64,000 bases of DNA from Patescibacteria group bacterium (GTDB lineage: Bacteria > Patescibacteriota > Saccharimonadia > UBA4664), in the NCBI GenBank assembly GCA_028288925.1, contig JAQGHG010000012.1:77762-141761 (forward strand), written 5' to 3'. This document shows, piece after piece, positions 3,635 through 56,965 of this stretch (within the stretch, counting starts at the first letter, position 1; each line of letters opens with the position of its first letter). A model generated the notes under the pieces. It saw only the letters and a program-made list of their open reading frames with translations, was not told the origin of the DNA and made no database searches. The position numbers were made by a program, and so were the translations under genes.

Positions 3635-4689
3635 ATATCCGATTGCTCTTCATTACCCGCGCTTATCCTCCGTCCGTGGGGGGGATGGAGCAAGTTTCCT
3701 ATAATCTCGCCCAAGCTCTCAAGGAAGAACTGCCGGTCGAAATTATCGCTTACGGAGGCAAAAGAATCGGCCTTCTGTGGTTTCTACCCCAGGCGTTCTT
3801 CCTGGCTCTCTGGAAAATATCCCGGCATGGCATTACGCACATTCATCTTGGGGATGCGGTCCTATCTCCTATCGGACTAGCCTTAAAGATACTCACGCGC
3901 AAAAAAGTTAGCGTCACCGTTCACGGTCTTGATGTCACTTACAAAAACCCCCTATATAGGGCCGTCAATCTGCCGAGCCTGCGCCACCTGGACAACATAA
4001 TCTGCGTTTCCAAACACACCCTAGAGCAATGCACCCAACGTGGCGTTCCTGCTAGCAAATGCACTGTCATACCCTGGGGCGTCGACCCACAAGAATTCCG
4101 CGTCACTGCTAGCCGCGAGGACCTGGAGGGCATCACGGACATGAACCTAAGTAATAAAAAAGTTCTCCTCACCGTCGGGCGGCTCGTCAAACGCAAAGGC
4201 GTCGCGTGGTTCATCGATCAAGTCATGCCCATCCTCGGCCCGGAGTACGTCTACCTGATAGTAGGGGAGGGCCCGGAGCGCCCGGCCATCGAGGCGACCA
4301 TTACAAACCACGGTCTCCACGACCGCGTAAGACTCCTCGGCCAACTACCCGACCGCGAGCGCACGGTCCTCTACAATACCTCCGACATCTTCATCATGCC
4401 CAACATCCCCCTGCCGGGCGACATGGAAGGGTTTGGGACGGTGGCGATAGAGGCATCCGTCGCGGGAATGCCGGTTGTAGGGAGTAATCTAGAAGGCGTA
4501 AAAGATGCGGTGATCGACGGCGAGACGGGCTGGCTTGCCTCGCCGCAGTCGCCGGCTGACTATATTATGTGCATAGGCAAGGCACGCGACACTAATCGTC
4601 TTCGTGTCGCCAGGATCACCGAACAAAAATTCAATTGGCGAGCCACTGCCATTGCTTACCGAAAGACTTTGGAGCACTCGTGCGCATAG
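3631..4689 (+). CDS. GT4 (group 1) glycosyltransferase
   Basis: C-terminal EGFGTVAIEA...GMPVVGS...DGETGWL motif typical of GT4; overlaps the upstream gene by 4 nt. Confidence 0.8.
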   Translation: MNIRLLFITRAYPPSVGGMEQVSYNLAQALKEELPVEIIAYGGKRIGLLWFLPQAFFLALWKISRHGITHIHLGDAVLSPIGLALKILTRKKVSVTVHGLDVTYKNPLYRAVNLPSLRHLDNIICVSKHTLEQCTQRGVPASKCTVIPWGVDPQEFRVTASREDLEGITDMNLSNKKVLLTVGRLVKRKGVAWFIDQVMPILGPEYVYLIVGEGPERPAIEATITNHGLHDRVRLLGQLPDRERTVLYNTSDIFIMPNIPLPGDMEGFGTVAIEASVAGMPVVGSNLEGVKDAVIDGETGWLASPQSPADYIMCIGKARDTNRLRVARITEQKFNWRATAIAYRKTLEHSCA

Positions 4690-5759
4690 CTATTATTTGT
4701 GAGCTCGCCAATACGCAACGACAAGGCGGCGAGCAGCATGCTATGCTTACGCTCGCTCGAGGATTGGCTAAGCAGGCTCATGTGGATGTATTCAGCTACG
4801 CTCCGTCCCAGGGTCAAAAGCTCATAGCAAGCAAAATACCTCTTGGGCTTCGGCTGCTACCATTTATTCGTGATATGTTCTTCCTGCCTATTATCGGGAG
4901 GTTCCTTCTGCGGAAGATTGATCAAGATTACGATGTTATTCAGGCGACATCATCTACTCTCGCGGCTTTTTATCGGCCGCGTACCCGGTTTATCGTTACT
5001 TGTCATATTATCCGCTCTCAAAAAATCCCACTTTTCTACCGCCTACCCAAATACTGGCTTTTATTCAATCCACTTACTTATCGGATCATGAAGCGGCTTG
5101 AGCGGCGAGGTCTGCGTAATGCCGATAACGTGGTCGTAATTCGCGAGCATCAACGCCAATTTCTTATTGACGAACTTAAAATATCGCCCAAAAAGATCAC
5201 TCTCATACCCAACGGTGTCGATGTGGAGATCTTTAAGCCACAAGCCACACCCAAGAAGAATCAGGTAGTTTTCGTCGGCCGTACGACCTTCCCAAAAGGC
5301 TTCAATTTGCTTGTTGACGCGGCTAATTATATCGAGGGCGATATTATCGTCATCACCCAAAAAGGCGCCTCTGAACTACTGGCAAGAGCTCAGAAAACAC
5401 CCAATATGCAAATCATCAAAAGTGCGCCGCCGGAAGTTGTAGCCGGACACTACGCGGAGTCTAAGGTATTTATCTTACCTTCTCTCGACGAGGAGCAGCC
5501 CCTCACCGTTCTGGAGGCACTCGCCTGCGGGCTTCCAATAGTGGTGTCCGAGAAAGCTGCGTCGGATGTGTTTACCAGAGAGAGTACCGTTGAAGGGAAG
5601 GTTCTCGATTATCTTCGGCCAGATACCATCGCTGAAGCGGTTAATTATTACCTGAGAACCAGCATGGGGACCATAAAAAGAAACCGCCAGATTGTTGTTG
5701 ACCAATATTCCCTCGAAAATAACCTGAACCATTACCTGAGGCTTTATGAAGATAGTTAA
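4679..5759 (+). CDS. GT4 (group 1) glycosyltransferase
   Basis: VFVGRTTFPKG...EEQPLTVLEALACGLPIVVS motif; probable GTG start at 4679 (VRIAIICELANT), overlapping the upstream stop. Confidence 0.75.
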
Positions 5760-7413
5760 ATGGATAAAAAGCGAGAAATTCCTTGTCATAATCGGCGGTC
5801 TGCTCGTATTCAGTTTTTATGCCTTAATTACACTCAATCTGAACATACATGGTGATTCTAAATTCCATACTCAATTTGCCAAGGAGAGTGTTGAAAGCGG
5901 GTTTCTCGTAAAGAACCAGCCATACAGGATTTACTCAATAAGTAATGGGCAGATAAGCTTTGAGCCTATCTCATACCCCCTAGGATCGGAGGCCTTATTC
6001 GGCTCTCTCTATGCTATCGGTGGTGAGACCCTACTCCAGTTGCTATCAGCAATAATGGCGCTTGGGGTTTATTTACTCGTCTATGTTTTGCTACGGGAAT
6101 TCGGCAAAAAAGTTGCCCTTCCTACGGCAATTTTATCGGTGTTGGTAGTCGGCGAAAGACTGTTCATGACGCCGTTGCTCGAACCACTCCTTCTGATCCT
6201 ATTACTCGGCGCGGTGGTGTGTGTCAAAAACTTCCTTCGTCAAAATGATAAAAAACAGCTTTACCTGGCGGCGCTTTTTGTAGGCGCGGCGACATGCATA
6301 AAACAACAGGGTCTAGTAGCACTATTCGCCATAGCGGGCTTCCTTACTTGTTTTTTTGTTTGGAAAATTGCCCACAAGGAATGGGGGCTAAGAAAGATAA
6401 GCGCGCTATTTATCTTTATCCTTATAGCGTTTACCGTCCCTGCTCCTTCGATTGCCGAACAAATACATCGGACAGGAACATTTGCTTTTGCGCCCGGAAG
6501 GACGGAACTGCCATCATCGATGCCTTTTTATAATCTGGTGCAACCACTGCTCACAAGTAAATTCGCTGTAAAACCTGAAGCCAAGGCAGCAATAAAGGAA
6601 CAGGTTAAGTACAACCAAAAAAAGCAATCTTTCACCGACAAGGTTAGGGGGTTCCTTTTAGCGCCTATCCTTTTTTACCGGTCTACGGATAGTGGTTTTC
6701 TTTCATCCAGCTACACAATGCTCTTCTACGGAACGCTCACATTGTTGTTACTATTCGTTATCGCATTGATACGACGCGGAGATGTCTTTGGAGGATTCCT
6801 CGTATACTTAATGATTACCGAAATGCTCGTTTCCTTTACCTTGAAAACGCCCATAACTCAGTACCACACCTTTGGAGTAATTCTGGTGGTTATGGTGCTG
6901 GCCCTAGCTCTGAAAAATCTTCTAGCTTTGGCCAAAGTACCCGGCATAGCCTACCTCCTTCTTGCTTTTGGGCTGTTCACATTTAACTACGCGGACTTGC
7001 TGGTCCCTTTGTGGAGCTCATCGGGTAGAGAGGACGGCCATAGCTTAACGGCCTACCAAAGAATAGGGGCATATGTCCAAGAGAGTACGCCCAAGAGCTC
7101 AATCTTTCTCGCTCCAGAGACAAGCTTCAGATATTATGCCAAGCGCGATACGATCTGGCTTACAGAGGACAACGCGGATGTCGTGATGCGCATCATCACC
7201 AACCCCAACCCCGATAATGAGCTGAAAGATTTACGTAGTCTATCCGTAACGCACGTAGTAATAAACGCGAGCCAGTTAAACCGATACGGAGTAAACGATT
7301 ATCTGCCGCCCGACGGGCTTTATGCGGGTATCAAAAACTCACCACATTTTAAGAAGCTCTATGACCCTTATGGTGATGGGCATTTCGTAATCTACGAGGT
7401 GCGCTATGAGTAA
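5746..7413 (+). CDS. polytopic membrane protein with C-terminal soluble domain (GT-C glycosyltransferase or O-antigen-polymerase-like candidate)
   Basis: 555 aa; about 12 hydrophobic helices then a roughly 150-aa hydrophilic C-terminus; lower-GC segment within the glycosyl cluster. Confidence 0.45.
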   Translation: MKIVKWIKSEKFLVIIGGLLVFSFYALITLNLNIHGDSKFHTQFAKESVESGFLVKNQPYRIYSISNGQISFEPISYPLGSEALFGSLYAIGGETLLQLLSAIMALGVYLLVYVLLREFGKKVALPTAILSVLVVGERLFMTPLLEPLLLILLLGAVVCVKNFLRQNDKKQLYLAALFVGAATCIKQQGLVALFAIAGFLTCFFVWKIAHKEWGLRKISALFIFILIAFTVPAPSIAEQIHRTGTFAFAPGRTELPSSMPFYNLVQPLLTSKFAVKPEAKAAIKEQVKYNQKKQSFTDKVRGFLLAPILFYRSTDSGFLSSSYTMLFYGTLTLLLLFVIALIRRGDVFGGFLVYLMITEMLVSFTLKTPITQYHTFGVILVVMVLALALKNLLALAKVPGIAYLLLAFGLFTFNYADLLVPLWSSSGREDGHSLTAYQRIGAYVQESTPKSSIFLAPETSFRYYAKRDTIWLTEDNADVVMRIITNPNPDNELKDLRSLSVTHVVINASQLNRYGVNDYLPPDGLYAGIKNSPHFKKLYDPYGDGHFVIYEVRYE

Positions 7414-8836
7414 TATGGGCCGGGGCGTTATGTATCTTGGCGTCTCATCAATCTTTTTCATGCTCTCTGGCTACCTGATAAATATATTACTCGGACGGCA
7501 CCTGGGGCCAGAATTATATGGTGCCTACGGGGTATTGATGTCGCTAATGACTACGATGAATATCATGCAAGTTTCGGGGATGCCGCAAGCGGTCAGCAAG
7601 TTTACGGCGGAAGATGAAGACAACTCCGAGGCTATCTTGCGCAGCGGCATTATGATTCAGCTATGGTCAACTCTTGTGATCGGATTAACGTTCTTTGTTT
7701 CAGCGCCTCTCTTCGCGGTCATCTTTAAAGATCCTGCCTTCACGGGCTACATGAGAGCCTTGTCGCTGGTCTTCCCTTTCTATGGGCTCTTCGCTCTCTA
7801 TGGTGGTTACTACAATGGCCGGCATAACTTTAAACGGCAAGCGATTATCAATAGCACCTACTCTGTCGTAAAGCTCGGGCTTGTCGTGGGGCTGGCGCTT
7901 GCATCTGGGCTCTATGGCGCCATCGCGGGCTTTGTTATGGCGTCGCTCTTTGCTCTTATTGGCGCTTTCCACAGGCCCAAAACCGTCCGAAGGTTTCCGT
8001 ATCGTCCTCTTATCTTGTACTCACTCCCACTTATCGGATTCGCGGTACTCTCCACCCTTCAGCTCTCCGTCGACCTCTTTTCCCTGAAGGCGATGACATC
8101 AGACGCGCGCTTGGTTGGGTATTACGCGGCCGCCCAAAGCATAGCAATCATTCCTTTCATGGCTATGAGCGCGATAGGACAAGTATTGTTCCCGAGCATC
8201 GCCAGGCAATTGGGCCAAGGCCGCGTACATGATGCGCGGAGGAGCATAAGACAAGCACTTCGCTACCTCTTATTGCTGTTAGTTCCTATTGCCGTGCTAA
8301 TAGCGGCAACAGCGCCTGACCTTATAAGTTTTCTCTTTGGCGCCAAATATTTACCCGCGGTTCCTGCGCTCCGGCTTCTTGTCCTCGGCTATGTTTTTCT
8401 GACGATATTTATGACATTCGCAAACATCCTAAACGGTTCAGGAAGAGCACATGCCTCGGCATTATGGGCCGGCATTGGCGTGGGCACCGCCTTTGTGCTG
8501 TGTATCCTTCTCATCCCTAATTACGGAAGTATCGGCGCCGCGGCGACAACCTGTATCGGGGCTTTTCTCGCGGCGGCGGGGGCGATTATAGCAACTTATC
8601 GCAGCCTCAAATTCAGGCCGCCATATCTCAGTATATTTAGACTGTCGATTGCGGCGATGGTGCTTTATGCGGCGGCCTATTTTGTAAGGCTGCCCACTGC
8701 GGTATTGCCGCTTTGGTATGTAGCATTAAGCGCGGCCTATGTTTGGCTACTTAGGCTTATGGGAGAAATCACCATCCAAGATTGGCAAATGACGAAAGCT
8801 CTATTCTCAAAACAAGACAGAGGAAGCGGATTATGA
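7406..8836 (+). CDS. polysaccharide biosynthesis protein / oligosaccharide flippase (Wzx, MOP superfamily)
   Basis: 476 aa; 12-14 TM helices; typical flippase hydrophobicity pattern; sits with GT genes. Confidence 0.7.
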   Translation: MSNMGRGVMYLGVSSIFFMLSGYLINILLGRHLGPELYGAYGVLMSLMTTMNIMQVSGMPQAVSKFTAEDEDNSEAILRSGIMIQLWSTLVIGLTFFVSAPLFAVIFKDPAFTGYMRALSLVFPFYGLFALYGGYYNGRHNFKRQAIINSTYSVVKLGLVVGLALASGLYGAIAGFVMASLFALIGAFHRPKTVRRFPYRPLILYSLPLIGFAVLSTLQLSVDLFSLKAMTSDARLVGYYAAAQSIAIIPFMAMSAIGQVLFPSIARQLGQGRVHDARRSIRQALRYLLLLLVPIAVLIAATAPDLISFLFGAKYLPAVPALRLLVLGYVFLTIFMTFANILNGSGRAHASALWAGIGVGTAFVLCILLIPNYGSIGAAATTCIGAFLAAAGAIIATYRSLKFRPPYLSIFRLSIAAMVLYAAAYFVRLPTAVLPLWYVALSAAYVWLLRLMGEITIQDWQMTKALFSKQDRGSGL

Positions 8837-10257
8837 ATAAAAACAAAAAGTGGTCACGGCTAACGGCCCTTGCGGGGTCCATGGTGTTAGTCGGATATAT
8901 CTTATTCGTCAACGCGATGCCATTAGGCGTGAGCTACGATTTCAAGCCAGGAAATAAAAATGTGTCATCGCTCGGCCCTGGAACCCGGGTTGAGACGCTA
9001 AATAGAAGTCAACGCCTCATCCAGGATCTCGCGTACTTCACGTCTAATATGACATTTCTTTTTGAACATGCACGAGTTCGCATGGCAATAAAAACTAGCG
9101 ATGTAAACCAGGTGGCTTGGTTGGGGTATAAAGACCAGCAAGCTTGGCATTACAACAATCAAGTTATAAGCGCGCCATTCATAGATTCATTAGGCTGGGC
9201 CAGGGTGGGAGAAGGGCCCTACCTCTATCAGAAACAACCAAGCTATAAGTCCTACGCCGATTTTATGGCTAATACACCTAGGGACAAATTTATAGGGGTC
9301 TATAACTACAGCGATACCGCGCTACGCCAGAGCAAGGCGGACATGTCAGGTTACAAGCCCGCCACCGCTGAAACGGTCGTCTCTACTCCTATCCGTGGCA
9401 AAGTTACAATGTACGCTTACCTCGCCAATGAGCCGTTTCGCCTCGCCGTCGAAAAAAGAGACCTTAATTGGTACAAAGATCCTGACGTTGCTACGGTAAA
9501 AGTCTACAAAGATACGGACAAAGTCTTCGAGACGACAATAGGTGACGACGGCAACACAAACGACGATCATCATCCAGGAGCCTCGCAACAAGCTGACATT
9601 AAGAACCCCGGCCCCGGACTGCCTGAAGCGGGTGTTTACAAAATTGTAATAGACGCACCGGACGACTCGATCATCACCAAAATCGCCACCAACATGCATA
9701 AGATTACGTTTGAAGGTCCTCTCCACCTGGCAGGCAACCATGAGGTTTACGGCGATGTTGTACCGCCGACCGCATCGGTTGACATCTTCACGAATGCCAC
9801 CGATGTCTCGGCGCAAGCATTCTCTAGGTCGGCTCAAACGCTCATAGCAGGTGGAAAATCAGTACCATTAACTCAATCACAAACGTTCATCAATCTCGCG
9901 TCCACGCCACAGATTAGTGCCATCAAGGCCCCCAAGAGTGACATCGTCATCAATGGCGTCGGCTACTTCGCCTTCAGCCAAGATCAATTCTTTGAACCCA
10001 CCCCCTATCACATTCTCCAAATCACCGGCCCCAAAGACCTCGAAAAAGTCGACTATGTACTCACCAACTACAAACCGCCCAAACAGCTCGGCGACGGCTG
10101 GGTAGAGGTGGAGCGGGAGTTTGATCTTAGCGGCGCCGTGGTGCAGAAAGGTAAGCTTAGTTGGGTTATTAGCGCGCCGGGACTGGCCGATAACAAGCGC
10201 AGTATCGAGATTAAGGATATTCAAATGACGCTCACTAAGAAAGGCTGGTTTAAGTAA
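8833..10257 (+). CDS. membrane-anchored extracytoplasmic protein of unknown function
   Basis: ATG at 8833 overlaps the upstream stop (ATGA); N-terminal TM anchor WSRLTALAGSMVLVGYILFV; about 475 aa. Confidence 0.5.
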   Translation: MNKNKKWSRLTALAGSMVLVGYILFVNAMPLGVSYDFKPGNKNVSSLGPGTRVETLNRSQRLIQDLAYFTSNMTFLFEHARVRMAIKTSDVNQVAWLGYKDQQAWHYNNQVISAPFIDSLGWARVGEGPYLYQKQPSYKSYADFMANTPRDKFIGVYNYSDTALRQSKADMSGYKPATAETVVSTPIRGKVTMYAYLANEPFRLAVEKRDLNWYKDPDVATVKVYKDTDKVFETTIGDDGNTNDDHHPGASQQADIKNPGPGLPEAGVYKIVIDAPDDSIITKIATNMHKITFEGPLHLAGNHEVYGDVVPPTASVDIFTNATDVSAQAFSRSAQTLIAGGKSVPLTQSQTFINLASTPQISAIKAPKSDIVINGVGYFAFSQDQFFEPTPYHILQITGPKDLEKVDYVLTNYKPPKQLGDGWVEVEREFDLSGAVVQKGKLSWVISAPGLADNKRSIEIKDIQMTLTKKGWFK

Positions 10258-11205: not shown

Positions 11206-11296
11206 AATCCATGCCGGAAACCGTCAGATCATCCTGTTGATCAATCGGTTTATATCTATAGAGTAGGACGAGTAGTAGTAAGGAGGGGTGCATTCT

Positions 11297-11542
11297 ATGA
11301 AGCGAAAGCTCGCGTTAACGGCGGCCGCCATTGCAATAACCGGCATGGCAGCTTCCAGCGCACTGGCCGCGCCAGGCAACGACAACGGTAATAACAACAA
11401 CAGTCGTCCTGGCTGGGGTAACGGTGACGCTCAACATGTCCACACCGGACCACCGGGGGAGTCGGTAAACCCAGGACATCATCATTTCTTCTGGTGGTGG
11501 ATCTGGAATTTCTTGCGACATTTCCATTTCCCATGGTCATAA
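11297..11542 (+). CDS. small secreted peptide precursor with Gly/Asn-rich middle and His/Trp/Phe-rich C-terminus
   Basis: SD AGGAGG 10 nt upstream; Sec-type signal peptide MKRKLALTAAAIAITGMAASSALA; mature tail HHHFFWWWIWNFLRHFHFPWS; followed by its own terminator. Confidence 0.55.
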   Translation: MKRKLALTAAAIAITGMAASSALAAPGNDNGNNNNSRPGWGNGDAQHVHTGPPGESVNPGHHHFFWWWIWNFLRHFHFPWS

Positions 11543-11545
11543 AAA

Positions 11546-11571
11546 AGAGCGGCTCCGGCCGCTCTTTTTTT
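11546..11571 (+). terminator. rho-independent terminator
   Basis: AGAGCGGC-TCCG-GCCGCTCT hairpin followed by T7. Confidence 0.6.
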
Positions 11572-11645
11572 GTAACAATGCCCAAGTCGGAGATTATGGC
11601 TTTGAGGATACGATAAGAAGGTAATTAAGAGGTGAGGTAATAACT

Positions 11646-15370: not shown

Positions 15371-15436
15371 GATGGCTAGCTATACATGAGCGCGTCCAAA
15401 TCCGCTACACTACCAATGACAGTAACCGGGGTCCTT

Positions 15437-16633
15437 ATGAAGAAGAAAACCATCCGCGATATCGACATCAAAGGTAAGACCATCCTGGCTCGCCTCGACT
15501 GGAACGTACCCATCAAGGACGGCCAGGTCACCGACGCCTACCGCATCGAGTCCACCCGGCCCACCATCGACTACTTGCTTGAGCAAGGCTGCAAAGTCAT
15601 CATCACGAGCCACCTCGGCCGCCCCGACGGTAAGCCTGATCCCAAGTTTAGTCTCGCGCCGGCCGCCAAAAAAGCCGCCGAAGTCCTCGGCCGCGAGGTT
15701 AAATTCATAGCCGATTGCGTAGGTACCGAAGTCCAGGCCGCCGTCGCCGCGCTCGAGCCCGGCCAGTTGCTCTGCCTCGAAAACGTCAGATTCCACCCCG
15801 AAGAAGAGGCCAACGACCCGGCTTTCGCCAAGCAGCTGGCGGACCTCGCCGAAGTCTTCGTCTACGACGCCTTCGCTTCATATCGCCCGCACGCTTCCAC
15901 CGAAGGCGTCGCGCACTACCTGCCCGCCGTGGCCGGTCTGCTGGTCGAAAAAGAAGTCGATTACATCACCGGCGCCGTCGAGCACCCCAACCGCCCACTC
16001 GTAGCCGTCATCGGCGGGGCCAAAGTCTCGACCAAGCTCGAGATCCTCACCAACCTCGTATCCAAGGTCGACGCCATGCTCCTTACCGGGCCCATCGCCA
16101 GCACCTTTGCTTACACCGAAGGCCGCGCCATCGGCAAAAGTGTCGCCGAGCGCGATCAGACCGAGGCCGTCAAAAAACTCCTCGAAATCGCCAAAACCGA
16201 AAACACCCAAGTCCTCCTACCCGAAGAGGTCGTCGTATCTAAGAGCTTGGAGAAGCCTCAAGACATTCACACCGTCAGCCTCGGCAGCGTCAAAGACGAC
16301 GAATACATCGTCGATGCCACCCCCGCCTACGGCGAGGTCCTCAAGCGCACCATCTACGACTTCCTCGACTTCGACGGCAAGGCCACCATCATCTGGAACG
16401 GCCCCCTCGGCCTCACCGAAGTGCCCGAATTCCGCGCCGGCTCCCGCGCCATGGCCCAGGCCATCATCGACAGCAAAGGCATCTCCATTATCGGCGGCGG
16501 CGACACCGCCAGCTTCCTCGACCAAGAAGGCCTACACGACAAATTTACTTGGGTGTCCACCGGCGGCGGCGCCAGTCTAGAGCTCATGAGCGGCAAGGGC
16601 TTGCCCTGCGTCGACGCATTGCTCGACAAATAG
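15437..16633 (+). CDS. pgk: phosphoglycerate kinase
   Basis: ARLDWNVP, IITSHLGRP, GGGDT and GGGASLE motifs; the ORF track begins earlier at 15386. Confidence 0.92.
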   Translation: MKKKTIRDIDIKGKTILARLDWNVPIKDGQVTDAYRIESTRPTIDYLLEQGCKVIITSHLGRPDGKPDPKFSLAPAAKKAAEVLGREVKFIADCVGTEVQAAVAALEPGQLLCLENVRFHPEEEANDPAFAKQLADLAEVFVYDAFASYRPHASTEGVAHYLPAVAGLLVEKEVDYITGAVEHPNRPLVAVIGGAKVSTKLEILTNLVSKVDAMLLTGPIASTFAYTEGRAIGKSVAERDQTEAVKKLLEIAKTENTQVLLPEEVVVSKSLEKPQDIHTVSLGSVKDDEYIVDATPAYGEVLKRTIYDFLDFDGKATIIWNGPLGLTEVPEFRAGSRAMAQAIIDSKGISIIGGGDTASFLDQEGLHDKFTWVSTGGGASLELMSGKGLPCVDALLDK

Positions 16634-16691
16634 CTCACGGGTCCTGTCACCCGTAAGCCTAGTTGCTCAGAGTGCAATAAAGGTAGGCGGA

Positions 16692-16786
16692 GGGAATATG
16701 CGCTTTGTGCCAGCCAGCGCCGGTCCAGATATTGGCTCCACCGAAGAGAAGGACAGCGTTCGCTGGCCAACAAAGCGCATATTCCC
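16692..16786. repeat. palindromic repeat element, copy A (intergenic pgk-tpiA): 17-bp outer inverted repeat GGGAATATGCGCTTTGT / ACAAAGCGCATATTCCC around a conserved core
   Basis: read directly; the core TGTGCCAGCCAG...GGCTCCACCGAAGAGA...GCGTTCGCTGGCCA is about 86% identical to copy B at 22607-22697. Confidence 0.7.
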
Positions 16787-16883
16787 GCAGCAAAAAAATA
16801 AAAGCTTCTCCCAAGCAAAAACCTGATAGAAACGTGACACAATGCTCGCAAAGCATTACCATTATTAATGAAATGAGGGTAAT

Positions 16884-17648
16884 ATGCGGCTAATCGTCGG
16901 AAACTGGAAGATGAACTTAAACCCGGGCGAGGCCAGCTTGCTCGTGAAGCGCCTAGAGGACAAAATAAAGCCCGATCCTAAAACTGAGATCGTCATTTGC
17001 CCGCCGTTCATCGATCTGTATCCTATCGCCAAAGACCTCGACCGCGGTAAGCTCAAGCTGGGCTCGCAAAACATCCACTACCTCGACGAAGGACCCTTCA
17101 CCGGTGAAATCTCCCCGGCCATGCTCAAGGGCCTGGCCGATTACGCCATCATCGGCCACTCCGAGCGCCGGGCCATGGGCGAAGACGACAAGCTGATCGC
17201 CAAAAAAATGGCGGCCGCCATCCGCAATGACATCACGCCCGTCCTCTGCGTCGGCGAGACCCTGGCCGAGCGCCAGCACGGTCTGGCCAAAAAGGTGATA
17301 GTCGACCAGCTCACCGCCGACCTCACCCAGCTCACCGCCACCGACGTTGCCAAAATCGTCGTAGCCTACGAGCCCGTCTGGTCCATCAACCACGGCGACG
17401 GCAACATCGTGCACGCCAAGCCCGAAGACATCACCTTTGCCTACACCACCATCCGCACTCTCCTGGAGGAACTCTACGGCGAAGAGGGCGTGAGCGGCTT
17501 ACGGCTGCTCTATGGCGGCAGCGCCGATCCCGGCCATTGCCGAGCCTACTTAGAAATGCCTTATGTCGACGGGCTACTCGTCGGCGGCGCCAGCCTAAAT
17601 TACGAAGATTTCGCCAAGATAGTCAAAGTTGCTCAAGGTTTAAAGTAG
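16884..17648 (+). CDS. tpiA: triosephosphate isomerase
   Basis: GNWKMN, IIGHSERR, CVGETL, AYEPVWSI motifs. Confidence 0.92.
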   Translation: MRLIVGNWKMNLNPGEASLLVKRLEDKIKPDPKTEIVICPPFIDLYPIAKDLDRGKLKLGSQNIHYLDEGPFTGEISPAMLKGLADYAIIGHSERRAMGEDDKLIAKKMAAAIRNDITPVLCVGETLAERQHGLAKKVIVDQLTADLTQLTATDVAKIVVAYEPVWSINHGDGNIVHAKPEDITFAYTTIRTLLEELYGEEGVSGLRLLYGGSADPGHCRAYLEMPYVDGLLVGGASLNYEDFAKIVKVAQGLK

Positions 17649-20165: not shown

Positions 20166-23100
20166 GTGCATCCACTTCTAGCCGAACTCAATGAGCCCCA
20201 GCGCAAAGCCGCCGAAACCACCGATGGCCCCGTCTTAATATTGGCCGGCGCCGGCTCGGGCAAGACCAAGGCCCTCACGCACCGCATTGCCTACCTGGCC
20301 GCCGAGAAGCATGTCCGGCCGCAAAGCATCCTGGCCGTCACCTTCACCAACAAAGCCGCCGGCGAGATGCGCGCGCGCGTCCTCAAGCTGCTCAGCCTCG
20401 ACCCCAACAATCGTGGCTATTTTCCGTTTATCGGCACCTTTCACTCGATCTGTCTGCGGCTGTTGCGGCGCGAAGCCACCGAGATCGGCCTGGCCTCCAA
20501 CTTCCTCATCTTCGACGCCGCCGACACCCAATCCGCCATCAAGCGCGCCATGCGCCAAACCAACATCGACGACAAACAATTCACCCCCAACCTCATCCAC
20601 GGCCTCATCTCCAGCGCCAAAAACGAGCTGGTCGATGCCGCGGCCTACGCCAAATTCGCCACCGGCAAGGCCCAAGAAGCCGCCGCCAAAGTCTATCCCG
20701 TCTACCAAGCCACCCTCCAAGAAGCCGGCGCGCTCGACTTCGACGACCTCATCTTCCGCACCGTCAAAATGTTCAAAGACTATCCCGAAATTCTCAAAAA
20801 ATACCAAAATCAATTCCAATACATTATGGTCGACGAATACCAAGACACCAACCATGCCCAATATCAAATCACTAAGCTTCTGGCCCAAGGCCACCACAAC
20901 ATTTGCGTAGTAGGGGACGACTGGCAATGCCTGGTTCCAGGGACCTTGATCGAAACCCCCGCTGGCCCCAGGAAAATTGAGGCCATTACCAGGGGAGACC
21001 TCGTCACCTCGGCGAGCGGTTACGGCCGGTCCGGACAGTTTAAAGTCTTAGCTCAAAAAAAATTCCAATACCAAGGCGAGATAATCCACATTGAGACCGC
21101 TTCGGGCAAGGAGCTGGCATGCACGCCCAATCATCTGCTCTTCTCCCGGTGGAGCCAAACGGACGCCTATTTTGTCTATCTGATGTATTCGCAAGACAAG
21201 GGCTATCGCATTGGTGTCGCTAAAGGCACAAGATTTGATGGCAAAAAGCACGACACCGGCCTAAGGATACGTGCCAACCAGGAACGCGCCGACCGAATGT
21301 GGGTGATCAAAGTTTGCGTCAACCGGGCAGAAGCCATGTACAACGAAGCTCTCTTCGCGTACAAGTATGGAATTCCCATGTTAGTCTTCCGTGCCTTTAG
21401 CAACCGGGCCATGAAATTTGATCAAAAGTACATTGACGCCATCTATGAGGAGATCGACACCGAAACCAGAGCCAAACAGCTAATGACAAGGCTTGGGTTA
21501 GCCTTCGACTATCCGCACTTTGTACCCAGCGCCACCACCAGAAATGACATAAAGCGAGTAGTTGTAAACGTGGTTCTTTTTGGTGATAAGCGCATTACGC
21601 GACAAAGCCCGTGGTCAGCCAGTAGAATTTCCGCCAACACTACCGTCCGCCACGATATTGAAGTGTTTGAGAAGCTTGGACACACGGTAAGAATCGGTCG
21701 GTCGGGCACGTTCCGGGCCGAGATTCACAACCTCGACTATGGTCAAATCGAGCAGACACTTGAGCAGCTAAAGGAAGGTGCGGCCAACCAGCTACAAATC
21801 CACAAATACGCGTTTCTAACCGATAACAAATTCTCGTACATGCCAGCCAGCCAAATACATCTCGGCATGATGGTCCCCACAATCCAGGACGGTGTTATAA
21901 CGGAAGACCGGATAGTCGCGGTCAGTCGGAGCCATTACTCAGGGCCGGTATACGACCTAGATATTGATAAAGTTCATAATTACATCGCCTCAGAGCTGGT
22001 TGTGCATAACTCCATATATTCTTGGCGCGGCGCCAATTTCCAAAACATTCTCGACTTCGAAAAAGACTATCCCGACACCGAAGTCATCAAGCTTGAGCAA
22101 AATTATCGCTCCACCAAGCGCATTCTCGATGCTGCCCACGCTATTATCACCAAAAACCGCACCCGCAGCGACAAAAAACTCTGGACCGACCGCGGCGACG
22201 GCGCCGGCATCAGCATCGTCAACGTCTACAACGAAATCCAGGAAGCCGAGACCATCGTGCGCAAAATCCAAGAGCTCAAACTCGCCGAAACGCGCGAGCT
22301 CTACGACTTCGCCATCCTCTACCGCACCAACGCCCAATCCCGCTCGCTCGAAGAAGCCTTCCTGCGTGCCAACCTGCCCTACAAAATCGTCGGCGGCACG
22401 CGCTTCTATGAGCGCAAAGAAATCAAAGACGCCCTGGCCTACCTGCGCTTCGTCTACCAGCCCGACGACATGGTGAGCTTCGGCCGCATCATCAACCTCC
22501 CGCCACGCGGCCTCGGCGACGTCAGCCTCCAACGCCTCGAGTCCTGGCGCCGCACCCAGACCATCAGGGCAAATAACGGGGAGGAGCGCAGCGGGGTAGA
22601 GGCGCAGGGTGGCTCATCTGTGCCAGCCAGTGTAGGTTCAGATACCGGCTCCACCGAAGAGACGGATGGCGTTCGCTGGCCAGCAGATGAGCCACCCGAA
22701 GCCCAAGCGAATAAGCTGCGCCCCATGTCCCTCCTCGAGGCCTGCCGCCAAGCCGACCGCGCCCCCGGCCTCCAGGCCCGCGCCGTCAACGCCCTCCAAA
22801 CCTTTGCCCTGCTCATCGACGGCCTGCGCCAAGAGGCCAAAACCCTCGCCGTCGGCCCACTGCTGAGCCTCATCATCAAGCGCTCCGGCTACCTCGCCCA
22901 CCTCGACGATGGCTCCATCCAGGCCGCCGACCGCATCGAAAACGTCAAAGAGCTCCTCTCTGTCGCCGAGGCCTACAACGAACTCCCGCTCCAAGGCTTC
23001 CTGGAAGAAATCGCCCTCATCTCCGACATCGACAACTATTCCGAGTCCACCGACGCCGTCACCCTCATGACCCTCCACGCCGCCAAAGGCCTCGAGTTTC

Positions 23101-23621
23101 CCGTGGTCTTCATCCCCGGCGCCGAAGAGGGCATCTTCCCGCATTCCCGCGCACTCTTCGACGGCGAGCAGATGGAAGAAGAGCGCCGCCTTTGCTACGT
23201 CGGCATGACCCGGGCCAAAGAACGCCTCTATATGCTCTATGCCAACTCGCGCCTGCTCTACGGCTCCACCAACCACAACCCACCCTCACGCTTCCTCCTG
23301 GAAATCCCTGCCGAGCTTCAGGCCGATGACAACGAATGGAGCGCCGCTTCCCGTACCGCCGCGGCCGGCCACGGCGCCGGCGCCGCCAGCTGGTCGCCCA
23401 CAGCCATGCGCGCCACCGGCCCCACCACTGAAGCCTCCGCCGCCGCCCACCGCGAAGCCATGCTCGGCCTCAGTCTGGCCCCCGGCGACCGCATCCACCA
23501 CGCCAAATTCGGCGACGGCATCGTCAGCTCCATCTCCGGCGACGAAGTCACCGCCGCCTTCGAAGGCATCGGCTCCAAACGCCTCAGCCTCAGTTTCGCC
23601 CCGATCGAAAAGGTGGAATAA
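20166..23621 (+). CDS. uvrD: ATP-dependent DNA helicase UvrD/PcrA carrying an intein in helicase motif III
   Basis: Walker A AGAGSGKT; DEYQDTN; VVGDDWQ / SIYSWRGAN split by the intein; C-terminal VGMTRAKE and Tudor-like tail; 1151 aa against roughly 740 aa expected. Confidence 0.9.
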   Translation: MHPLLAELNEPQRKAAETTDGPVLILAGAGSGKTKALTHRIAYLAAEKHVRPQSILAVTFTNKAAGEMRARVLKLLSLDPNNRGYFPFIGTFHSICLRLLRREATEIGLASNFLIFDAADTQSAIKRAMRQTNIDDKQFTPNLIHGLISSAKNELVDAAAYAKFATGKAQEAAAKVYPVYQATLQEAGALDFDDLIFRTVKMFKDYPEILKKYQNQFQYIMVDEYQDTNHAQYQITKLLAQGHHNICVVGDDWQCLVPGTLIETPAGPRKIEAITRGDLVTSASGYGRSGQFKVLAQKKFQYQGEIIHIETASGKELACTPNHLLFSRWSQTDAYFVYLMYSQDKGYRIGVAKGTRFDGKKHDTGLRIRANQERADRMWVIKVCVNRAEAMYNEALFAYKYGIPMLVFRAFSNRAMKFDQKYIDAIYEEIDTETRAKQLMTRLGLAFDYPHFVPSATTRNDIKRVVVNVVLFGDKRITRQSPWSASRISANTTVRHDIEVFEKLGHTVRIGRSGTFRAEIHNLDYGQIEQTLEQLKEGAANQLQIHKYAFLTDNKFSYMPASQIHLGMMVPTIQDGVITEDRIVAVSRSHYSGPVYDLDIDKVHNYIASELVVHNSIYSWRGANFQNILDFEKDYPDTEVIKLEQNYRSTKRILDAAHAIITKNRTRSDKKLWTDRGDGAGISIVNVYNEIQEAETIVRKIQELKLAETRELYDFAILYRTNAQSRSLEEAFLRANLPYKIVGGTRFYERKEIKDALAYLRFVYQPDDMVSFGRIINLPPRGLGDVSLQRLESWRRTQTIRANNGEERSGVEAQGGSSVPASVGSDTGSTEETDGVRWPADEPPEAQANKLRPMSLLEACRQADRAPGLQARAVNALQTFALLIDGLRQEAKTLAVGPLLSLIIKRSGYLAHLDDGSIQAADRIENVKELLSVAEAYNELPLQGFLEEIALISDIDNYSESTDAVTLMTLHAAKGLEFPVVFIPGAEEGIFPHSRALFDGEQMEEERRLCYVGMTRAKERLYMLYANSRLLYGSTNHNPPSRFLLEIPAELQADDNEWSAASRTAAAGHGAGAASWSPTAMRATGPTTEASAAAHREAMLGLSLAPGDRIHHAKFGDGIVSSISGDEVTAAFEGIGSKRLSLSFAPIEKVE
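20928..22010 (+). other. intein (361 aa) inside uvrD
   Basis: starts CLVPGTLIETPAG (block A); TPNH (block B); ends VYDLDIDKVHNYIA...VVHN followed by +1 Ser (blocks F/G); the flanks rejoin to GDDWQSIYSWRGA. Confidence 0.8.
22607..22697. repeat. palindromic repeat element, copy B, in-frame inside uvrD: 14-bp outer inverted repeat GGGTGGCTCATCTG / CAGATGAGCCACCC
   Basis: shares the conserved core with copy A; encodes roughly GGSSVPASVGSDTGSTEETDGVRWPADEPP within a non-conserved UvrD loop. Confidence 0.65.
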
Positions 23622-28813: not shown

Positions 28814-28896
28814 ACGGCCCGCCCAGGGGCAGGAAAAAGGGCAGAGCGACCACTTGGTCGCTCTGCCCTTTCGCATCTCTGTTAATATAGGTCTAT

Positions 28897-34394: not shown

Positions 34395-34981
34395 CGGTCG
34401 TTCGCTCAAGGTCGGACCTTGATATTTGACAGACTACCCTGTAACCTGTCAAATATGCCTAGCCCCAATGCAGTCAAAGAGTCTCTCCGGGATGGCGTCT
34501 ACCACGTCTACAACCGCGGCGTTGAGCGGCGCGACATCTTCATGGATCATCACGGTTATCAGCGGTTTAAACTGCAGATGCGCACGTTTCTGGAGCGCGA
34601 ACTAAACCATTTCCATTTACTTGTCCAGCGAACCGATAACGAGGCGATGAGCCGGTACATTAAGCGGCTCGTGGTGGGCTATGTTATGTATTTCAACAAA
34701 AAATACCACCGTGTAGGGCCACTGTTCCAGGGCAAATACAAGGCTGTCCGGGTGATCGGGCCCCGGCAGCTCATGGAAGTTTCGCGCTATATCCACCTGG
34801 ATCCTGAGCGCGCCGGTCTCGGCTGGCGTCAACACCAGCACTCAAGTATCGCCAGCTATACCCGCGAGGCGGGCGCCGATAACATGGTCGATCCCGGTCC
34901 GGTGCTCGAGCTTTTCGATATACCAGAGGATTATAAGCGATATATGTCAATTGGCGAGGTCCGACCTTGAGCGAACGACCG
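34395..34981 (+). mobile_element. IS200/IS605-family or RAYT-like HUH transposase gene flanked by perfect 24-bp inverted repeats (REPtron-like unit)
   Basis: left CGGTCGTTCGCTCAAGGTCGGACC (34395-34418) is the exact reverse complement of right GGTCCGACCTTGAGCGAACGACCG (34958-34981). Confidence 0.7.
34455..34970 (+). CDS. HUH (Y1) transposase, IS200-like / REP-associated tyrosine transposase-like
   Basis: YHVYNRG, HuH motif HFHLLV, catalytic Tyr context FQGKYKAV, YIHLDPERAGL; about 171 aa. Confidence 0.8.
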   Translation: MPSPNAVKESLRDGVYHVYNRGVERRDIFMDHHGYQRFKLQMRTFLERELNHFHLLVQRTDNEAMSRYIKRLVVGYVMYFNKKYHRVGPLFQGKYKAVRVIGPRQLMEVSRYIHLDPERAGLGWRQHQHSSIASYTREAGADNMVDPGPVLELFDIPEDYKRYMSIGEVRP

Positions 34982-50332: not shown

Positions 50333-50722
50333 TTGGGCAAATACCTGGGAATTGATTATGGCGCGAAGCGGATTGGCCTGGCTACCGCCGACGCCGAAAC
50401 CAAGCTGGCTACGCCCCTCGCCACGGTGGGGGCGGCCGAGCTGATCGCAACCATTAAGCGCGAGGGACCGTTCAAGGCAGTCGTGGTTGGCCTTCCGCGC
50501 AGCCTCGACGGCCTCGAGACCGCCCAGACCTTGGCCGTGCGCCGTTTCACCGATGACGTGCTGTGGCGGCACTTGCGCATCGAGGCCGAGTTCCAAGACG
50601 AGGCCGGCACCTCGTCGCTCGCCGAAGAGCGCCTCAAGGGTGCCGGCAAGCCCTACGCCAAAGGCGCCATCGACGCGGAAGCCGCCGCTATCATTTTGCA
50701 AGATTACCTGGACGCGCTATGA
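50333..50722 (+). CDS. ruvX: Holliday-junction-resolvase-like RNase YqgF/RuvX
   Basis: YLGIDYGAKRIGLA N-terminus; VVGLPRSLDG; TTG start. Confidence 0.85.
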   Translation: MGKYLGIDYGAKRIGLATADAETKLATPLATVGAAELIATIKREGPFKAVVVGLPRSLDGLETAQTLAVRRFTDDVLWRHLRIEAEFQDEAGTSSLAEERLKGAGKPYAKGAIDAEAAAIILQDYLDAL

Positions 50723-51735
50723 AGTCTAGCTACTCTCGGCGGCCGTGGCTCACGCCGCGCAAGGTCTATGGCACGCTGCTCATCCTCGTCCTGGCCGCGG
50801 CGCCGGTGCTATACGCCAAATACCGCCTGGATCTGCGGCCGGTCGCCGCGCAAGGGCAGAGTCAGCAGTTTGTGGTGGCGGCCGGCGAAAACGCCCAGGG
50901 TATCGCCACCCATCTCCGGGCCGCCGGCCTCATTCGCGACCGTAACGCCTTCATTACGTATGTGAACCTGCACGGCTTACGCCCCCGGCTCAAGGTCGGG
51001 ACATACGCCATTGTGCCCAATCTCTCGGCCGCCCAAATCGCCGAGCTCCTAGCCGGCGGCAAAACTATCTCGAAGCGCTTGCTCGTGCCCGAAGGCTACC
51101 GACTCAGCCAGATTACGGCCGCCGCCGCCAGCCTGGGCATCGACAAAACAGCCTTCGCGGCCGCCCTAACTGCCGCCCACCGCCAGACATTCCTGACCGG
51201 CAAACCGGCCAATGTCGACCTCGAGGGCTACCTCTTCCCGGATTCCTACGCCGTCGACGCCGACACCACCCCAACTCAGCTCGTAAACGCCATGCTCGAT
51301 AACTTCGGCAAGCGCGTCGGCCCCGAGTACACCCAAGCCTTTGCCGCCGAGGGGCTCACCCTTCATCAGGGTCTCACGCTCGCTTCGGTGATCGAAAAAG
51401 AAGTCCACAACCCCGCCGACCGCCCCATTGTGGCGCAGGTCTTTCTCAAACGCTTCAAAACCGGCATGCCGCTGGGCTCCGACGTTACCACCCAATACGC
51501 TGCCGACCAGCTCCATGTACCCTTTGATACTAATCTCGACTCCCACTACAATACCCGCCGTTACCCCGGCTTGCCGCCCGGGCCCATCTGTAGCCCCGGC
51601 CTTGGCGCTCTCGATGCCGCCGCCCACCCTGCTACTACCGATTACCTCTACTTTCTAAGCGACAAAAACGGCAAAACCTACTTTGCCAAGACATACGCTG
51701 AGCACCAGCAGAATATCGTTAAGTATCTCCAGTAG
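50719..51735 (+). CDS. mltG: endolytic murein transglycosylase MltG (YceG family)
   Basis: ATG overlaps the ruvX stop (ATGA); N-terminal TM; YceG-like GxYxxxPN and LVPEGYRL motifs. Confidence 0.85.
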   Translation: MKSSYSRRPWLTPRKVYGTLLILVLAAAPVLYAKYRLDLRPVAAQGQSQQFVVAAGENAQGIATHLRAAGLIRDRNAFITYVNLHGLRPRLKVGTYAIVPNLSAAQIAELLAGGKTISKRLLVPEGYRLSQITAAAASLGIDKTAFAAALTAAHRQTFLTGKPANVDLEGYLFPDSYAVDADTTPTQLVNAMLDNFGKRVGPEYTQAFAAEGLTLHQGLTLASVIEKEVHNPADRPIVAQVFLKRFKTGMPLGSDVTTQYAADQLHVPFDTNLDSHYNTRRYPGLPPGPICSPGLGALDAAAHPATTDYLYFLSDKNGKTYFAKTYAEHQQNIVKYLQ

Positions 51736-51985
51736 CGTAACGGGTCCTGGCAGCTTCGGAATATCTCTCCTCGGGCGAGCGAGCGCTGCCCGTCTCTTCG
51801 GTGGACACGATATCAGTATCCGCACTCGCTTCCTCGGAGAGACATTCCTGCGCCGCCACCCGTAAAAAGCGCCACATGGAGCTCAAATTTGACAACGTGT
51901 GGAACATATCATACCGGTGTGTCGTGATGTTTATTTGATGCCGTGAAGGGCCGCATTTTCCCCTTGGCAAGGCTCTTTAACATGG

Positions 51986-54856: not shown

Positions 54857-56674
54857 ATGTCGCAGGTTAAGCCCCATTACACCAAACAGACACTCAGTCT
54901 TTTTTGGCAACATATCAAGCGGTATCCCCAGCATCTCTGGCCGTTACTGTTCACGATTCCCGCTACCGTTCTGGTGGGGGAGTTTCTGCGCCCCTACGTT
55001 ACGGCCGATATTCTCAATCGCCTCAGTACCGGCTCCTATGATCACCACAACCTCTTAGCGAGCTTTGGCTCCCAGCTGCTGATCTTCGCGGCGGCTAGCA
55101 TCTTCTATGGCGTCATCGGCTGGCGCGTCACCAACTGGATCTCGTGGCGGCTTGAGCTCAAGGTAATGCGCGAGCTCACGCAACGTGTCTTCGGTCACCT
55201 CTTGGCCATGAGCCCCAATTTTCATGCCAACCGGTTCGGTGGCTCGCTAGTCTCGCAGACCAATAAACTCAACGGCGCCTACATCCGTTTGATGGACTCG
55301 ACCGTTTTCGCGGTAATTCCCCTCGTAATATCGGTGATAGCTACGGTTGTAATCTTGGTGCCGCGAGCTCCCCTCTATGTGGCCGCGCTGCTCGTGATCT
55401 CAGCGGTTTATCTCGTGGGTACCATTCACTTTTCCCGCGCGGTCCGAGACGCCAACGCCGAAGAAGCCGCCGTCCAGAGCCGCCAAACCGGCTACCTATC
55501 CGACAGCATCACCAATGTCTTCGCGATTAAAACCTTTGCGGCGGCGGATTACGAAGGCAAGCGCTTCTGGAAGATGAGCGGACTCGTGCAAGAAGCCGGC
55601 CACAAATCCATGCGGGCCACCCTCAAGCGCGAAAACTATGCCAGCCTCCTTACACAAACTCTAGGCATCGTGGCGCTCTGTATCGCCGTAATAGGTGTGG
55701 GCGTACTCAAGGCCGACATCGGCACCATCTTCCTGGTCGTCAGCTACACCGCCTCCATGGCCGAGCGCCTGTGGAACTTCCAGAATGTCCTGCGCCAGTA
55801 CAACCGGGCTATGGGTGACGCCAGCGACATGGTAGAGATTCTACAGATTAAGCCGGGCATTCAGGACCCGGCCCGGCCGGAGCCGTCGCGCATGCGCCAG
55901 GGCGCCATCACCTTTACCGGCGTAACGTTCACCCACGGCGACGCCGACGAAACCCTCTTCGAAGACTTCAGCCTCAAGATTAAGCCCGGCGAAAAGATTG
56001 GCTTGGTTGGGCATTCCGGCTCCGGCAAGACCACCCTCACCCGGCTGCTGCTGCGTTTCTCCGACCTCGATAGCGGCCATATCACGATCGACGGCCAAGA
56101 TATCGCCGCCGTCACCCAGGACGACCTGCGCCGGGCTATTAGCTATGTTCCGCAGGAGCCGATGCTCTTCCACCGTACCCTGCGCGAAAACATCGCCTAT
56201 GGCAAGCTCGACGCGCCGGAAGAGGAGATCATGCGGGCGGCCACGCGCGCCCACGCTCACGAGTTCATCGGCAAAATACCCAAAGGCTATGAGACGATGG
56301 TGGGCGAGCGGGGTATCAAGCTTAGTGGCGGCCAACGCCAGCGCATCGCCATCGCCCGGGCCATGCTCAAGGACGCGCCCATTCTGGTGCTCGACGAAGC
56401 CACTAGCGCTCTCGACAGCGAATCCGAACATCTCATCCAAGACGCGCTCTGGAGCCTCATGGAGGGCCGCACCGCCATCGTCATCGCTCACCGCCTCAGC
56501 ACCATCCAGCACATGGACCGGATCATCGTGCTCGAAGACGGCCGCATCACGGAGCAAGGCTCGCACGCCAAGCTCCTAGCCAAGGGCGGCGCCTACGCCA
56601 AGCTCTGGTCGCGCCAGTCGGGCGGCTTCATCGACGGCGACGAAGAGGCGGCAGCGGAAGACTCCAAGAGCTAG
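54857..56674 (+). CDS. ABC transporter permease/ATP-binding protein (MsbA-like exporter)
   Basis: 6 TM N-domain; Walker A GHSGSGKTT; signature LSGGQRQRIAIARA; Walker B ILVLDEATS. Confidence 0.88.
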   Translation: MSQVKPHYTKQTLSLFWQHIKRYPQHLWPLLFTIPATVLVGEFLRPYVTADILNRLSTGSYDHHNLLASFGSQLLIFAAASIFYGVIGWRVTNWISWRLELKVMRELTQRVFGHLLAMSPNFHANRFGGSLVSQTNKLNGAYIRLMDSTVFAVIPLVISVIATVVILVPRAPLYVAALLVISAVYLVGTIHFSRAVRDANAEEAAVQSRQTGYLSDSITNVFAIKTFAAADYEGKRFWKMSGLVQEAGHKSMRATLKRENYASLLTQTLGIVALCIAVIGVGVLKADIGTIFLVVSYTASMAERLWNFQNVLRQYNRAMGDASDMVEILQIKPGIQDPARPEPSRMRQGAITFTGVTFTHGDADETLFEDFSLKIKPGEKIGLVGHSGSGKTTLTRLLLRFSDLDSGHITIDGQDIAAVTQDDLRRAISYVPQEPMLFHRTLRENIAYGKLDAPEEEIMRAATRAHAHEFIGKIPKGYETMVGERGIKLSGGQRQRIAIARAMLKDAPILVLDEATSALDSESEHLIQDALWSLMEGRTAIVIAHRLSTIQHMDRIIVLEDGRITEQGSHAKLLAKGGAYAKLWSRQSGGFIDGDEEAAAEDSKS

Positions 56675-56705
56675 CCGAGCCGGGGTTTCTCCACGCACCA
56701 TCCGA

Positions 56706-56745
56706 TTTTACTTAGATTTCCGATGCATCGGAAATCTAAGTAAAA
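56706..56745. repeat. 40-bp perfect palindrome TTTTACTTAGATTTCCGATGCATCGGAAATCTAAGTAAAA
   Basis: read directly; lies between the ABC transporter stop and tRNA-Ala. Confidence 0.55.
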
Positions 56746-56924: not shown

Positions 56925-56965
56925 TCATTAAGAGCCGTGAGGCTCTTTTTGATATACTCATGCAT

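Follow-up and report, generated by a model that had tools for sequence, protein, structure and literature searches.

The stretch of DNA analyzed here comprises 64,000 nucleotides (64 kb) from a Saccharimonadia genome of the Patescibacteria (contig JAQGHG010000012.1, positions 77,762 to 141,761 of the forward strand), and is referred to below as the window. It contains a gene for a PcrA/UvrD helicase, and a palindromic element, designated copy B, is located inside the coding sequence of this gene; two further copies, A and C, are located between genes (Table 1). The closest relatives of the helicase are PcrA/UvrD proteins of Candidatus Saccharimonadia (identity 70-77%), and comparison with PcrA in the PDB (1PJR) gave E = 9e-101. 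The first-pass annotation of this DNA had described a palindrome at 22607-22697 that sits in the helicase gene with the frame intact, and both statements proved correct: the sequence consists of GGGTGGCTCATCTG, 63 nt and CAGATGAGCCACCC, in which the 14-nt inverted repeat is perfect (100% complementary), and the open reading frame 20166..23621 runs through it without a break or a stop codon.

Table 1. Positions of the element copies, their parts and the associated genes in the window
Feature	Position	Strand	Basis or remark
pcrA/uvrD helicase gene, host of the element	20166..23621	+	single open reading frame, 1151 aa; also bears an intein
Whole extra segment relative to most orthologues	22554..22727	+	orthologue alignment; 58 codons, TQTIRANN...KLRPM
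Copy B, conserved element	22593..22703	+	5' box GGGGTAGAGGCGCAGG to 3' box CCGAAGC
Stem P1, 5' arm (GGGTGGCTCATCTG)	22607..22620	+	inverted-repeat search; 100% complementary
Stem P1, 3' arm (CAGATGAGCCACCC)	22684..22697	+	inverted-repeat search; covariation
Conserved centre and 3' arm of stem P2	22634..22680	+	alignments; holds TCCACCGAAGAGACGG (22650-22665) and GCGTTCGCTGG
Copy A, intergenic between pgk (15386-16633) and tpiA (16884-17648)	16680..16792	+	covariance model R1, 101 bits
Copy C, intergenic	51752..51862	-	covariance model R1, 117.5 bits
Intein, separate insertion, not part of the element	20928..22010	+	361 aa; boundaries CLVPGT...VVHN/S; Pfam Intein_splicing, 49 bits
RAYT-like Y1 (IS200-type) transposase gene	34455-34970	+	Pfam Y1_Tnp, 23.9 bits (cut-off 23)

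Copy B was recognized at full length by the covariance model R1 (124.5 bits, E = 1e-27) and by nhmmer (E = 2e-29). Exactly three copies are present in the 64 kb, a number on which blastn, nhmmer and the covariance model with its filters off all agree; in the covariance search the reverse strands of the three copies scored at most 29 bits and all other sequence at most about 15 bits. A centre-like match at 56996-57028 (E = 0.47) is within coding sequence and was taken as chance. The copies of the window are about 110 nt each (about 110-150 nt in the family), with perfect P1 stems of 14-16 bp. Five parts are common to the copies: two boxes, GGGTRG..GCGSAGG on the 5' side and CCGMAGC on the 3' side, two stems, P1 (12-16 bp) and P2, and a centre. 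The consensus of the centre is ..GATA..TCCACCGAAGAGAMGG..GCGYTCG, which in copy B reads ...TCCACCGAAGAGACGG...GCGTTCG...; CCACCGAAGAGA, which precedes GG...GCGYTCG, is invariant: all copies with a retained core, from four genomes, have it unchanged. The motif GGGTAG or GGGTGG is found 5-8 nt 5' of P1 in copies A, B and C and in two copies from related DNA, L184 and L185, and GGTAG is also found in a third, L102, where P1 is not clear. Among A, B, C, L185 and L184 the P1 arms differ, and only their opening bases (GGRAW) are similar. Copies A and B, for example, show 85% identity over the 67-nt centre (E = 8e-17), whereas their P1 arms (16692-16707 and 16771-16786 in copy A) are unrelated past the first bases.

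The RNA fold of 22560-22730 has a predicted energy of -80.1 kcal/mol (z = -5.1), which none of 200 shuffled sequences equalled, and imperfect pairing around copy B extends to about 22578-22729. The z-scores of the copies themselves were -5.9 for B and -8.3 for A, and -2.0 for C, of which a truncated stretch was folded. We also considered that the segment in the helicase is an ordinary variable loop of this protein, which resembles the other two loci by chance. The length of the loop does vary in several close orthologues; however, the 85% match to copy A and the nhmmer E-values below 1e-27 for each of the three copies speak against such an explanation, and so do the inverted repeats: the window has five perfect ones (12 nt or longer, with a loop no longer than 120 nt), whereas shuffled sequence has a mean of 0.37, and two of the five are element copies. 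The GC content at third codon positions (GC3) of the segment also departs from that of the gene, as described below. The blastn, nhmmer and covariance-model matches refute the chance explanation, to which we assign practically no probability.

The pgk-tpiA spacer that contains copy A is 250 nt in the window and 109 and 70 nt in the relatives L187 and L188, respectively. Copy C lies 17 nt past the stop codon of a yceG/mltG-like gene (50563-51735) and is antisense to both of its neighbours, which were identified with Pfam. A small hairpin, ACGGGT-CCTGTC-ACCCGT, is situated at 16634-16660, with the stop codon of pgk on one side and copy A on the other; the pair ACGGGT/ACCCGT also forms the outermost stem of copy C, which may be a coincidence. 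In a near-identical strain from a JGI metagenome, copy A is annotated as the 42-residue hypothetical protein P0121 (window 16698-16826; L186 106-234), and this gene call is probably spurious.

Comparison with orthologues indicates what has been added to the helicase. In most of the 60 Saccharimonadia orthologues the sequence ...WRRxQx-LS-LLEACR is present with no insert, as expected for the lineage-specific insertion that had been proposed. In the window protein the inserted peptide GGSSVPASVGSDTGSTEETDGVRWPADEPPE is flanked by GLGDVSLQRLESWRR (22509-22553) and SLLEACRQAD (22728-22757), and the whole extra segment is made up of the element and of less conserved outer flanks that pair together (GGAGCGCAGC/GCTGCGCCCC). 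The alignment with PcrA 1PJR is interrupted at the insert, between query residues 178 and 239 and PcrA residues 432 and 439, and 60 residues of the window helicase stand against 6 in PcrA (residues 433-438). When compared as DNA, the nearest orthologues (L003 and L004) are both shorter by 132 nt (44 codons) across this site, and the length differences measured there are +132 nt and +108 nt. The first-pass annotation had put the added length at roughly 30-50 residues; it is 44 codons in the comparison with these two orthologues and about 54-58 residues in that with most orthologues and with 1PJR. Furthermore, GC3 is 0.62 in the 58 extra codons versus 0.82 elsewhere in the part of the gene after the intein; thus the extra segment does not carry the codon signature of the helicase gene.

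In an AlphaFold2 model of the part after the intein, the residues encoded by the element (195-231) form coil, and the predicted local distance difference test score is below 50 at residues 200-229, with confident helices on either side (170-194 and 241-246). The element occupies loop codons at the start of the 2B region of PcrA/UvrD. Copy B therefore falls in a part of the helicase that appears to tolerate additions, a predicted loop between residues 432 and 439 of PcrA, and the earlier placement in a variable loop before SLLEACRQAD agrees with this model. The intein divides the same protein at GDDWQ/SIYSWRGA; proteins of intein-bearing length were absent among the 120 orthologues listed.

The reading frame of the element is conserved along with its position. 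Wherever a coding copy has retained its core, namely in the window, L185 and L102, the frame that gives (S/P)TEET is used, and it is the sole sense frame that is open in all of them. In all four coding copies, that is, these three and L001, the frame of the host gene is kept and the sense frame contains no stop codon. Because frame and openness are kept in four coding copies, one of which has a dead centre, the segment seems to be translated rather than removed from the RNA, and copy B would be read as an acidic, disordered loop tolerated by the helicase. The contrary explanation is that the segment is an intervening sequence, cut from the mRNA and never translated. The GC3 of the segment, unlike that of the gene, would be understandable in that case, and the hairpin is long and of the kind excised from some ribosomal RNAs. 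However, the frame conserved in the four stop-free copies would then be unexpected; in L001 the conserved centre is lost and the gene is still open across the site, and no ribozyme or intron family matched the segment. We consider excision very improbable.

Related copies were seen only in other Saccharimonadia, two at the same uvrD site, one in frame elsewhere and one intergenic. A scan of genomes, one per species, gave 107 matches, of which one is real (L102, from a metagenome-assembled genome of Saccharimonadales); the others are chance matches or probably sequence common to Enterobacteriaceae, from which many of them came. A scan of metagenomes gave three matches, and two of these are real (L184 and L185). 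Viral contigs scanned with the 16-mer of the centre gave 71 matches, in which similarity is limited to the seeded word, and thus they were regarded as chance. No copy was present in the remaining distinct related Saccharimonadia DNA that was fetched (about 125 kb). For the peptide, a five-peptide profile was run against 5.8 billion proteins and another, built from the three window peptides, against 1.84 billion representatives; only the miscalled 42-residue frame over copy A matched.

In L185 the uvrD site is filled by the element (115 bits), followed by MSLLDACRH. The copy at the uvrD site of L001 (49.6 bits) has a decayed centre, a retained stem and an open frame. L102 has an in-frame copy near the C-terminus of an unrelated 608-aa protein (...HTGSTEETGSVRPP...). 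The copy in L184 (899-1035, minus strand) is intergenic, 13 nt past the stop codon of a ribonucleotide reductase-like gene, and antisense to this upstream gene; it carries a 29-nt internal insertion that resembles a partial tandem duplication of the centre (GGTGACCGAAGGGAGGTGGCGTAG beside GGGCCACCGAAGAGACGGATAG). The first-pass annotation had called for a search for the core motif in other coding sequences of the genome; the element was found again in two intergenic places of the window and, in another Saccharimonadales genome, in frame in the unrelated protein of L102. It had also named the contrary case, ancestral protein sequence with the same peptide in distant orthologues and no other copies; the peptide was not found in distant orthologues, and the other copies exist.

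The stems have changed more than their pairing. In six copies aligned to the model, 97.4% of the cells are paired, and both sides have changed in 16 of the 26 pairs, including 12 of the 13 pairs of P1. None of 500 shuffles reached the observed value, and pairing with a slid partner fell to 32-49%. Twelve pairs with compensatory change were also found in a separate MAFFT/RNAalifold run on four copies. In P1, 75 cells are Watson-Crick, two G-U and none A-C; in P2 the corresponding numbers are 37, three and none. Such paired changes of the stems also distinguish the copies that different lineages carry at the one uvrD site. On the other hand, all copies have identical codons in the centre, with zero synonymous variation, whereas the neighbouring amino acids differ, which indicates that conservation is at the nucleotide level. 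The constraint would act on the nucleic acid rather than on the peptide, because the stems were rewritten by paired changes that keep Watson-Crick pairing and the sequence of the centre was kept. This family is unusual in that the sequence of the stems can vary freely and their arms nevertheless remain paired. Compensatory change of this kind suggests that the hairpin itself has been under lasting constraint. It is probably still of importance to something, since the stems would otherwise have decayed; it would still serve propagation of the element or a use by the host, for example as a processing or binding site.

These observations raise the possibility that the host keeps the element mainly as a functional motif, of structured RNA or of single-stranded DNA, with the peptide as a by-product. 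Such a motif could be a binding or processing site, for example an RNase III target, or a stabilizer of 3' ends, and the explanation overlaps with the one we favour below. A conserved centre with covarying stems, as seen here, is the usual mark of a functional fold. The five G-U cells of P1 and P2 together, against no A-C cells, favour a single folding strand, the one that carries TCCACCGAAGAGA; the intergenic copies are 13-47 nt past stop codons, and in L001 the stem was kept despite the decay of the centre. However, Rfam 15 gave no relevant family match at the locus even at E up to 10: in the window only one tRNA reached the gathering threshold, and the best E-value at the locus was 0.48, for microRNA hairpin models. 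There is no common gene context, since the copies C and L184 are antisense to the upstream gene and A and B are sense, and no promoter-like or terminator-like site brackets any copy. Furthermore, P1 is almost purely Watson-Crick, which suits a DNA palindrome better than an RNA helix, and the distribution of the element is very narrow. A motif kept mainly for the host is thus, in our opinion, unlikely. A stronger form of the idea, which we put forward only tentatively, is that the element is no passive relic but a hairpin module with a conserved three-way centre, selected as folded RNA or single-stranded DNA and lasting in an essential helicase gene through extensive sequence turnover. If this were true, the same bases would hold two codes, one for a protein loop and one for a nucleic-acid fold, and the family would represent a kind of structured element hitherto overlooked in the reduced Saccharibacteria genomes, serving, for example, as a site that a protein of the host or of a mobile element recognizes.

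The RAYT-like gene of the window suggests another possible relationship, namely that the element is a REP/REPIN-type sequence served by this gene. Its product matches Y1_Tnp and, with 22.9 bits, which is below the cut-off of 80, the NCBIfam family REP_Tyr_transpos, and it has an HUH motif (HFH) and a tyrosine motif, YIHLDP. A GTRG box precedes the hairpin of the element on its 5' side as in REPs, although this is a resemblance only, and the 8-mer CGTTCGCT is common to the flanking repeat of the RAYT-like gene and the centre of the element. However, the gene, which is situated between tatD and an aminotransferase gene as in L190, is flanked by a different repeat of its own, a perfect 23-bp inverted repeat GGTCGTTCGCTCAAGGTCGGACC (34396-34418 / 34958-34980) that occurs nowhere else in the window. 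Its product lacks 11 residues just before the HUH motif that are present in all close homologues. Beside the homologues in L190 and L193, which are from related Saccharimonadia, doublets of the RAYT-flanking repeat are present and the studied element is not; it is absent from about 40 kb of distinct sequence around these two homologues (L191 and L192 repeat L190). In addition, REPINs have conserved arms and a variable centre, the reverse of what is found here. Given the gene's own repeat, the 11-residue gap and the homologues with no element, a link to the RAYT-like gene is not supported, and we judge it improbable.

An 11-bp stem (about 34422-34456) precedes the RAYT-like gene and reaches its start codon. 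The doublets are situated at 9095-9176 and 10534-10615 in L190 and at 9875-9955 and 10534-10615 in L193, beside one or two RAYT-like genes, and each consists of two inverted copies of CGCTSRAGRTCGGASC about 50 nt apart, with stems of 17-22 bp. From their appearance, this phylum has a REPIN/RAYT system that is different from the studied element. Other palindromes are also present in the window. A perfect loopless one of 42 nt, ATTTTACTTAGATTTCCGATG followed directly by CATCGGAAATCTAAGTAAAAT, lies at 56705-56746 between a gene whose end is at 56674 and tRNA-Ala (56819-56895), on the margin of a stretch of lower GC content. Perfect hairpins at 28836-28871 (17-nt arms, just past a gene ending at 28813) and at 11541-11570 (13-nt arms, within a weak minus-strand open reading frame, 11295-11585) are probably terminators unrelated to the element. 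The GC content is about 0.48-0.52 at about 4000-10000 and 56000-60000, versus about 0.60 elsewhere in the window. Nearly all genes of the window are on the plus strand, yet the GC skew of this strand is negative throughout (about -0.05 to -0.27), and its AT skew is positive.

Taken together, we consider it probable that copy B, as an in-frame, translated palindrome similar to the Rickettsia palindromic elements (RPEs), belongs to a small family of non-autonomous hairpin repeats of a subgroup of Candidatus Saccharimonadia. Copy B would have entered the helicase gene long ago; with an insert length divisible by three and no stop codon in the sense frame, the gene stayed intact. At the sites of L003 and L004 a stretch like the 5' box is followed by a mini-palindrome (e.g., GGGATAGTGCAGAGG-GGTTTGAAACC), and several other close orthologues have 3-25 extra residues at the uvrD site. 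The remnants and the variable short inserts fit an old insertion with later internal deletions, and no recognizable remnant of the element was found in the shorter inserts of L187-L189. The insertion at uvrD appears to be old and not recent, with the same site filled in at least two other lineages (L185 and L001). The element probably spread through a folded single strand, which would have been recognized by an enzyme supplied in trans.

Two ideas on the origin of the parts of the element did not hold. The 5' box as a pre-existing insertion target was suggested by its six occurrences against 0.6 expected; however, the three extra matches are all inside annotated open reading frames, and one of them is seen again in the same synthetase gene in both L190 and L193, which makes them look like coding coincidence. 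Copying of the P1 arms from the target was ruled out, since P1 has similar bases across the copies and the two diverged uvrD copies, L185 and L001, have P1 arms that are related.

Several points weigh against the interpretation as an RPE-like family. Conservation of the frame is the one basis for taking copy B to be translated as part of the helicase. In a single-gene tree the lineages that bear the element are not monophyletic, and thus one old insertion with repeated loss looks the same as repeated insertion at one site. No mobilizing enzyme was found among the open reading frames of the window that were examined, not all of which went through Pfam. The terminal arms are not conserved between copies, unlike those of ordinary MITEs (miniature transposable elements with inverted repeats), and no direct repeat that would represent a target duplication is consistently shared by the sequences on either side of the copies, while the empty sites of relatives are too diverged or bear remnants. 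The alignment used for covariation was fitted to the model and so favours the structure. Upkeep of perfect stems over a long time is unexpected for a dead selfish element, and the available sample is seven copies from four or five genomes. The first-pass annotation spoke of a selfish palindrome in an essential gene: the in-frame repeat in the essential gene stands, and the selfishness is less certain, because a mobilizing enzyme, conserved terminal repeats and a target duplication were not found. Compensatory change in the stems and the continuing constraint on the hairpin also suggest that a selfish relic may not be the whole story.

Saccharibacteria (TM7) are tiny host-dependent bacteria with very few repeats, and their lineage is unrelated to Rickettsia. 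Translated palindromes in housekeeping genes are best known from Rickettsia and less so from enterobacteria and Neisseria; the same outcome in Saccharibacteria would mean that in-frame fusion of palindromes recurs independently. The rewritten paired stems and the frozen centre, held within a reading frame, contrast with unusual clarity and provide a natural test of whether reading of the hairpin is the reason for its persistence. A model of the element would also help annotation, as copy A is miscalled as a protein and the insert in uvrD lengthens an otherwise well-conserved one.

RPEs are an established case of small palindromic repeats that are fused in frame with conserved genes, and ERIC, YPAL and the 107-bp Correia element are so to a smaller extent (PMC2229807, PMC10969869). 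Like ERIC, Correia and YPAL, the present element is small, forms a stable stem-loop, has open reading frames fused to host genes and is usually placed just after genes. However, those elements have conserved terminal inverted repeats, often a TA duplication and sometimes a known parent insertion sequence, none of which was found here. Similarly, the element does not agree with a classical MITE, since conserved terminal inverted repeats are lacking and a related autonomous insertion sequence was not seen among the open reading frames of the window examined, the one transposase-like gene among them having a different repeat. With REPs and REPINs it shares the hairpin repeats, the GTRG box 5' of the stem and long vertical persistence, and a single-copy RAYT-like gene is present at a syntenic position in the same genome; but this gene has its own repeat, REPINs have conserved arms with a variable spacer, and REPs are extragenic. 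The hairpin intervening sequences of rRNA resemble it as hairpins of about 100-150 nt that lie in an essential gene and do not destroy its function; they are excised from the RNA, whereas here the conserved frame argues for translation.

The RPEs are the closest parallel, as the first-pass annotation had proposed. It was not aware of an equivalent for this kind of genome, and in the literature open to our search no description of such elements was found for Saccharibacteria or the candidate phyla radiation. Differences from RPEs, which were compared by their published description, are evident. The host phylum is Patescibacteria/Saccharibacteria and the sequence family is unrelated; the 64 kb hold only three copies, and public data very few, versus dozens per Rickettsia genome (R. 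conorii, for example, has 44; PMC10969869). Conserved 12-bp terminal repeats are listed for RPEs (PMC2229807, PMC10969869), whereas here the arms vary and the centre is conserved, and the GC content is about 60% rather than AT-rich. This is thus a new family in a new phylum; the phenomenon of the in-frame palindrome was already known, and the lineage and the architecture are new. In common with RPEs, it has a length of about 100-150 bp, a long hairpin, and copies both between genes and in frame within conserved housekeeping genes; the single frame that can be used encodes a similar hydrophilic peptide, located in a loop that tolerates it, related species have insertions in common, and the genome is the small, reduced one of a host-dependent organism. 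In its size and hairpin, its intergenic and coding copies, its single frame and its placement in a loop, the element therefore fits the RPE-like kind, with no claim that it belongs to any of the named Rickettsia families.

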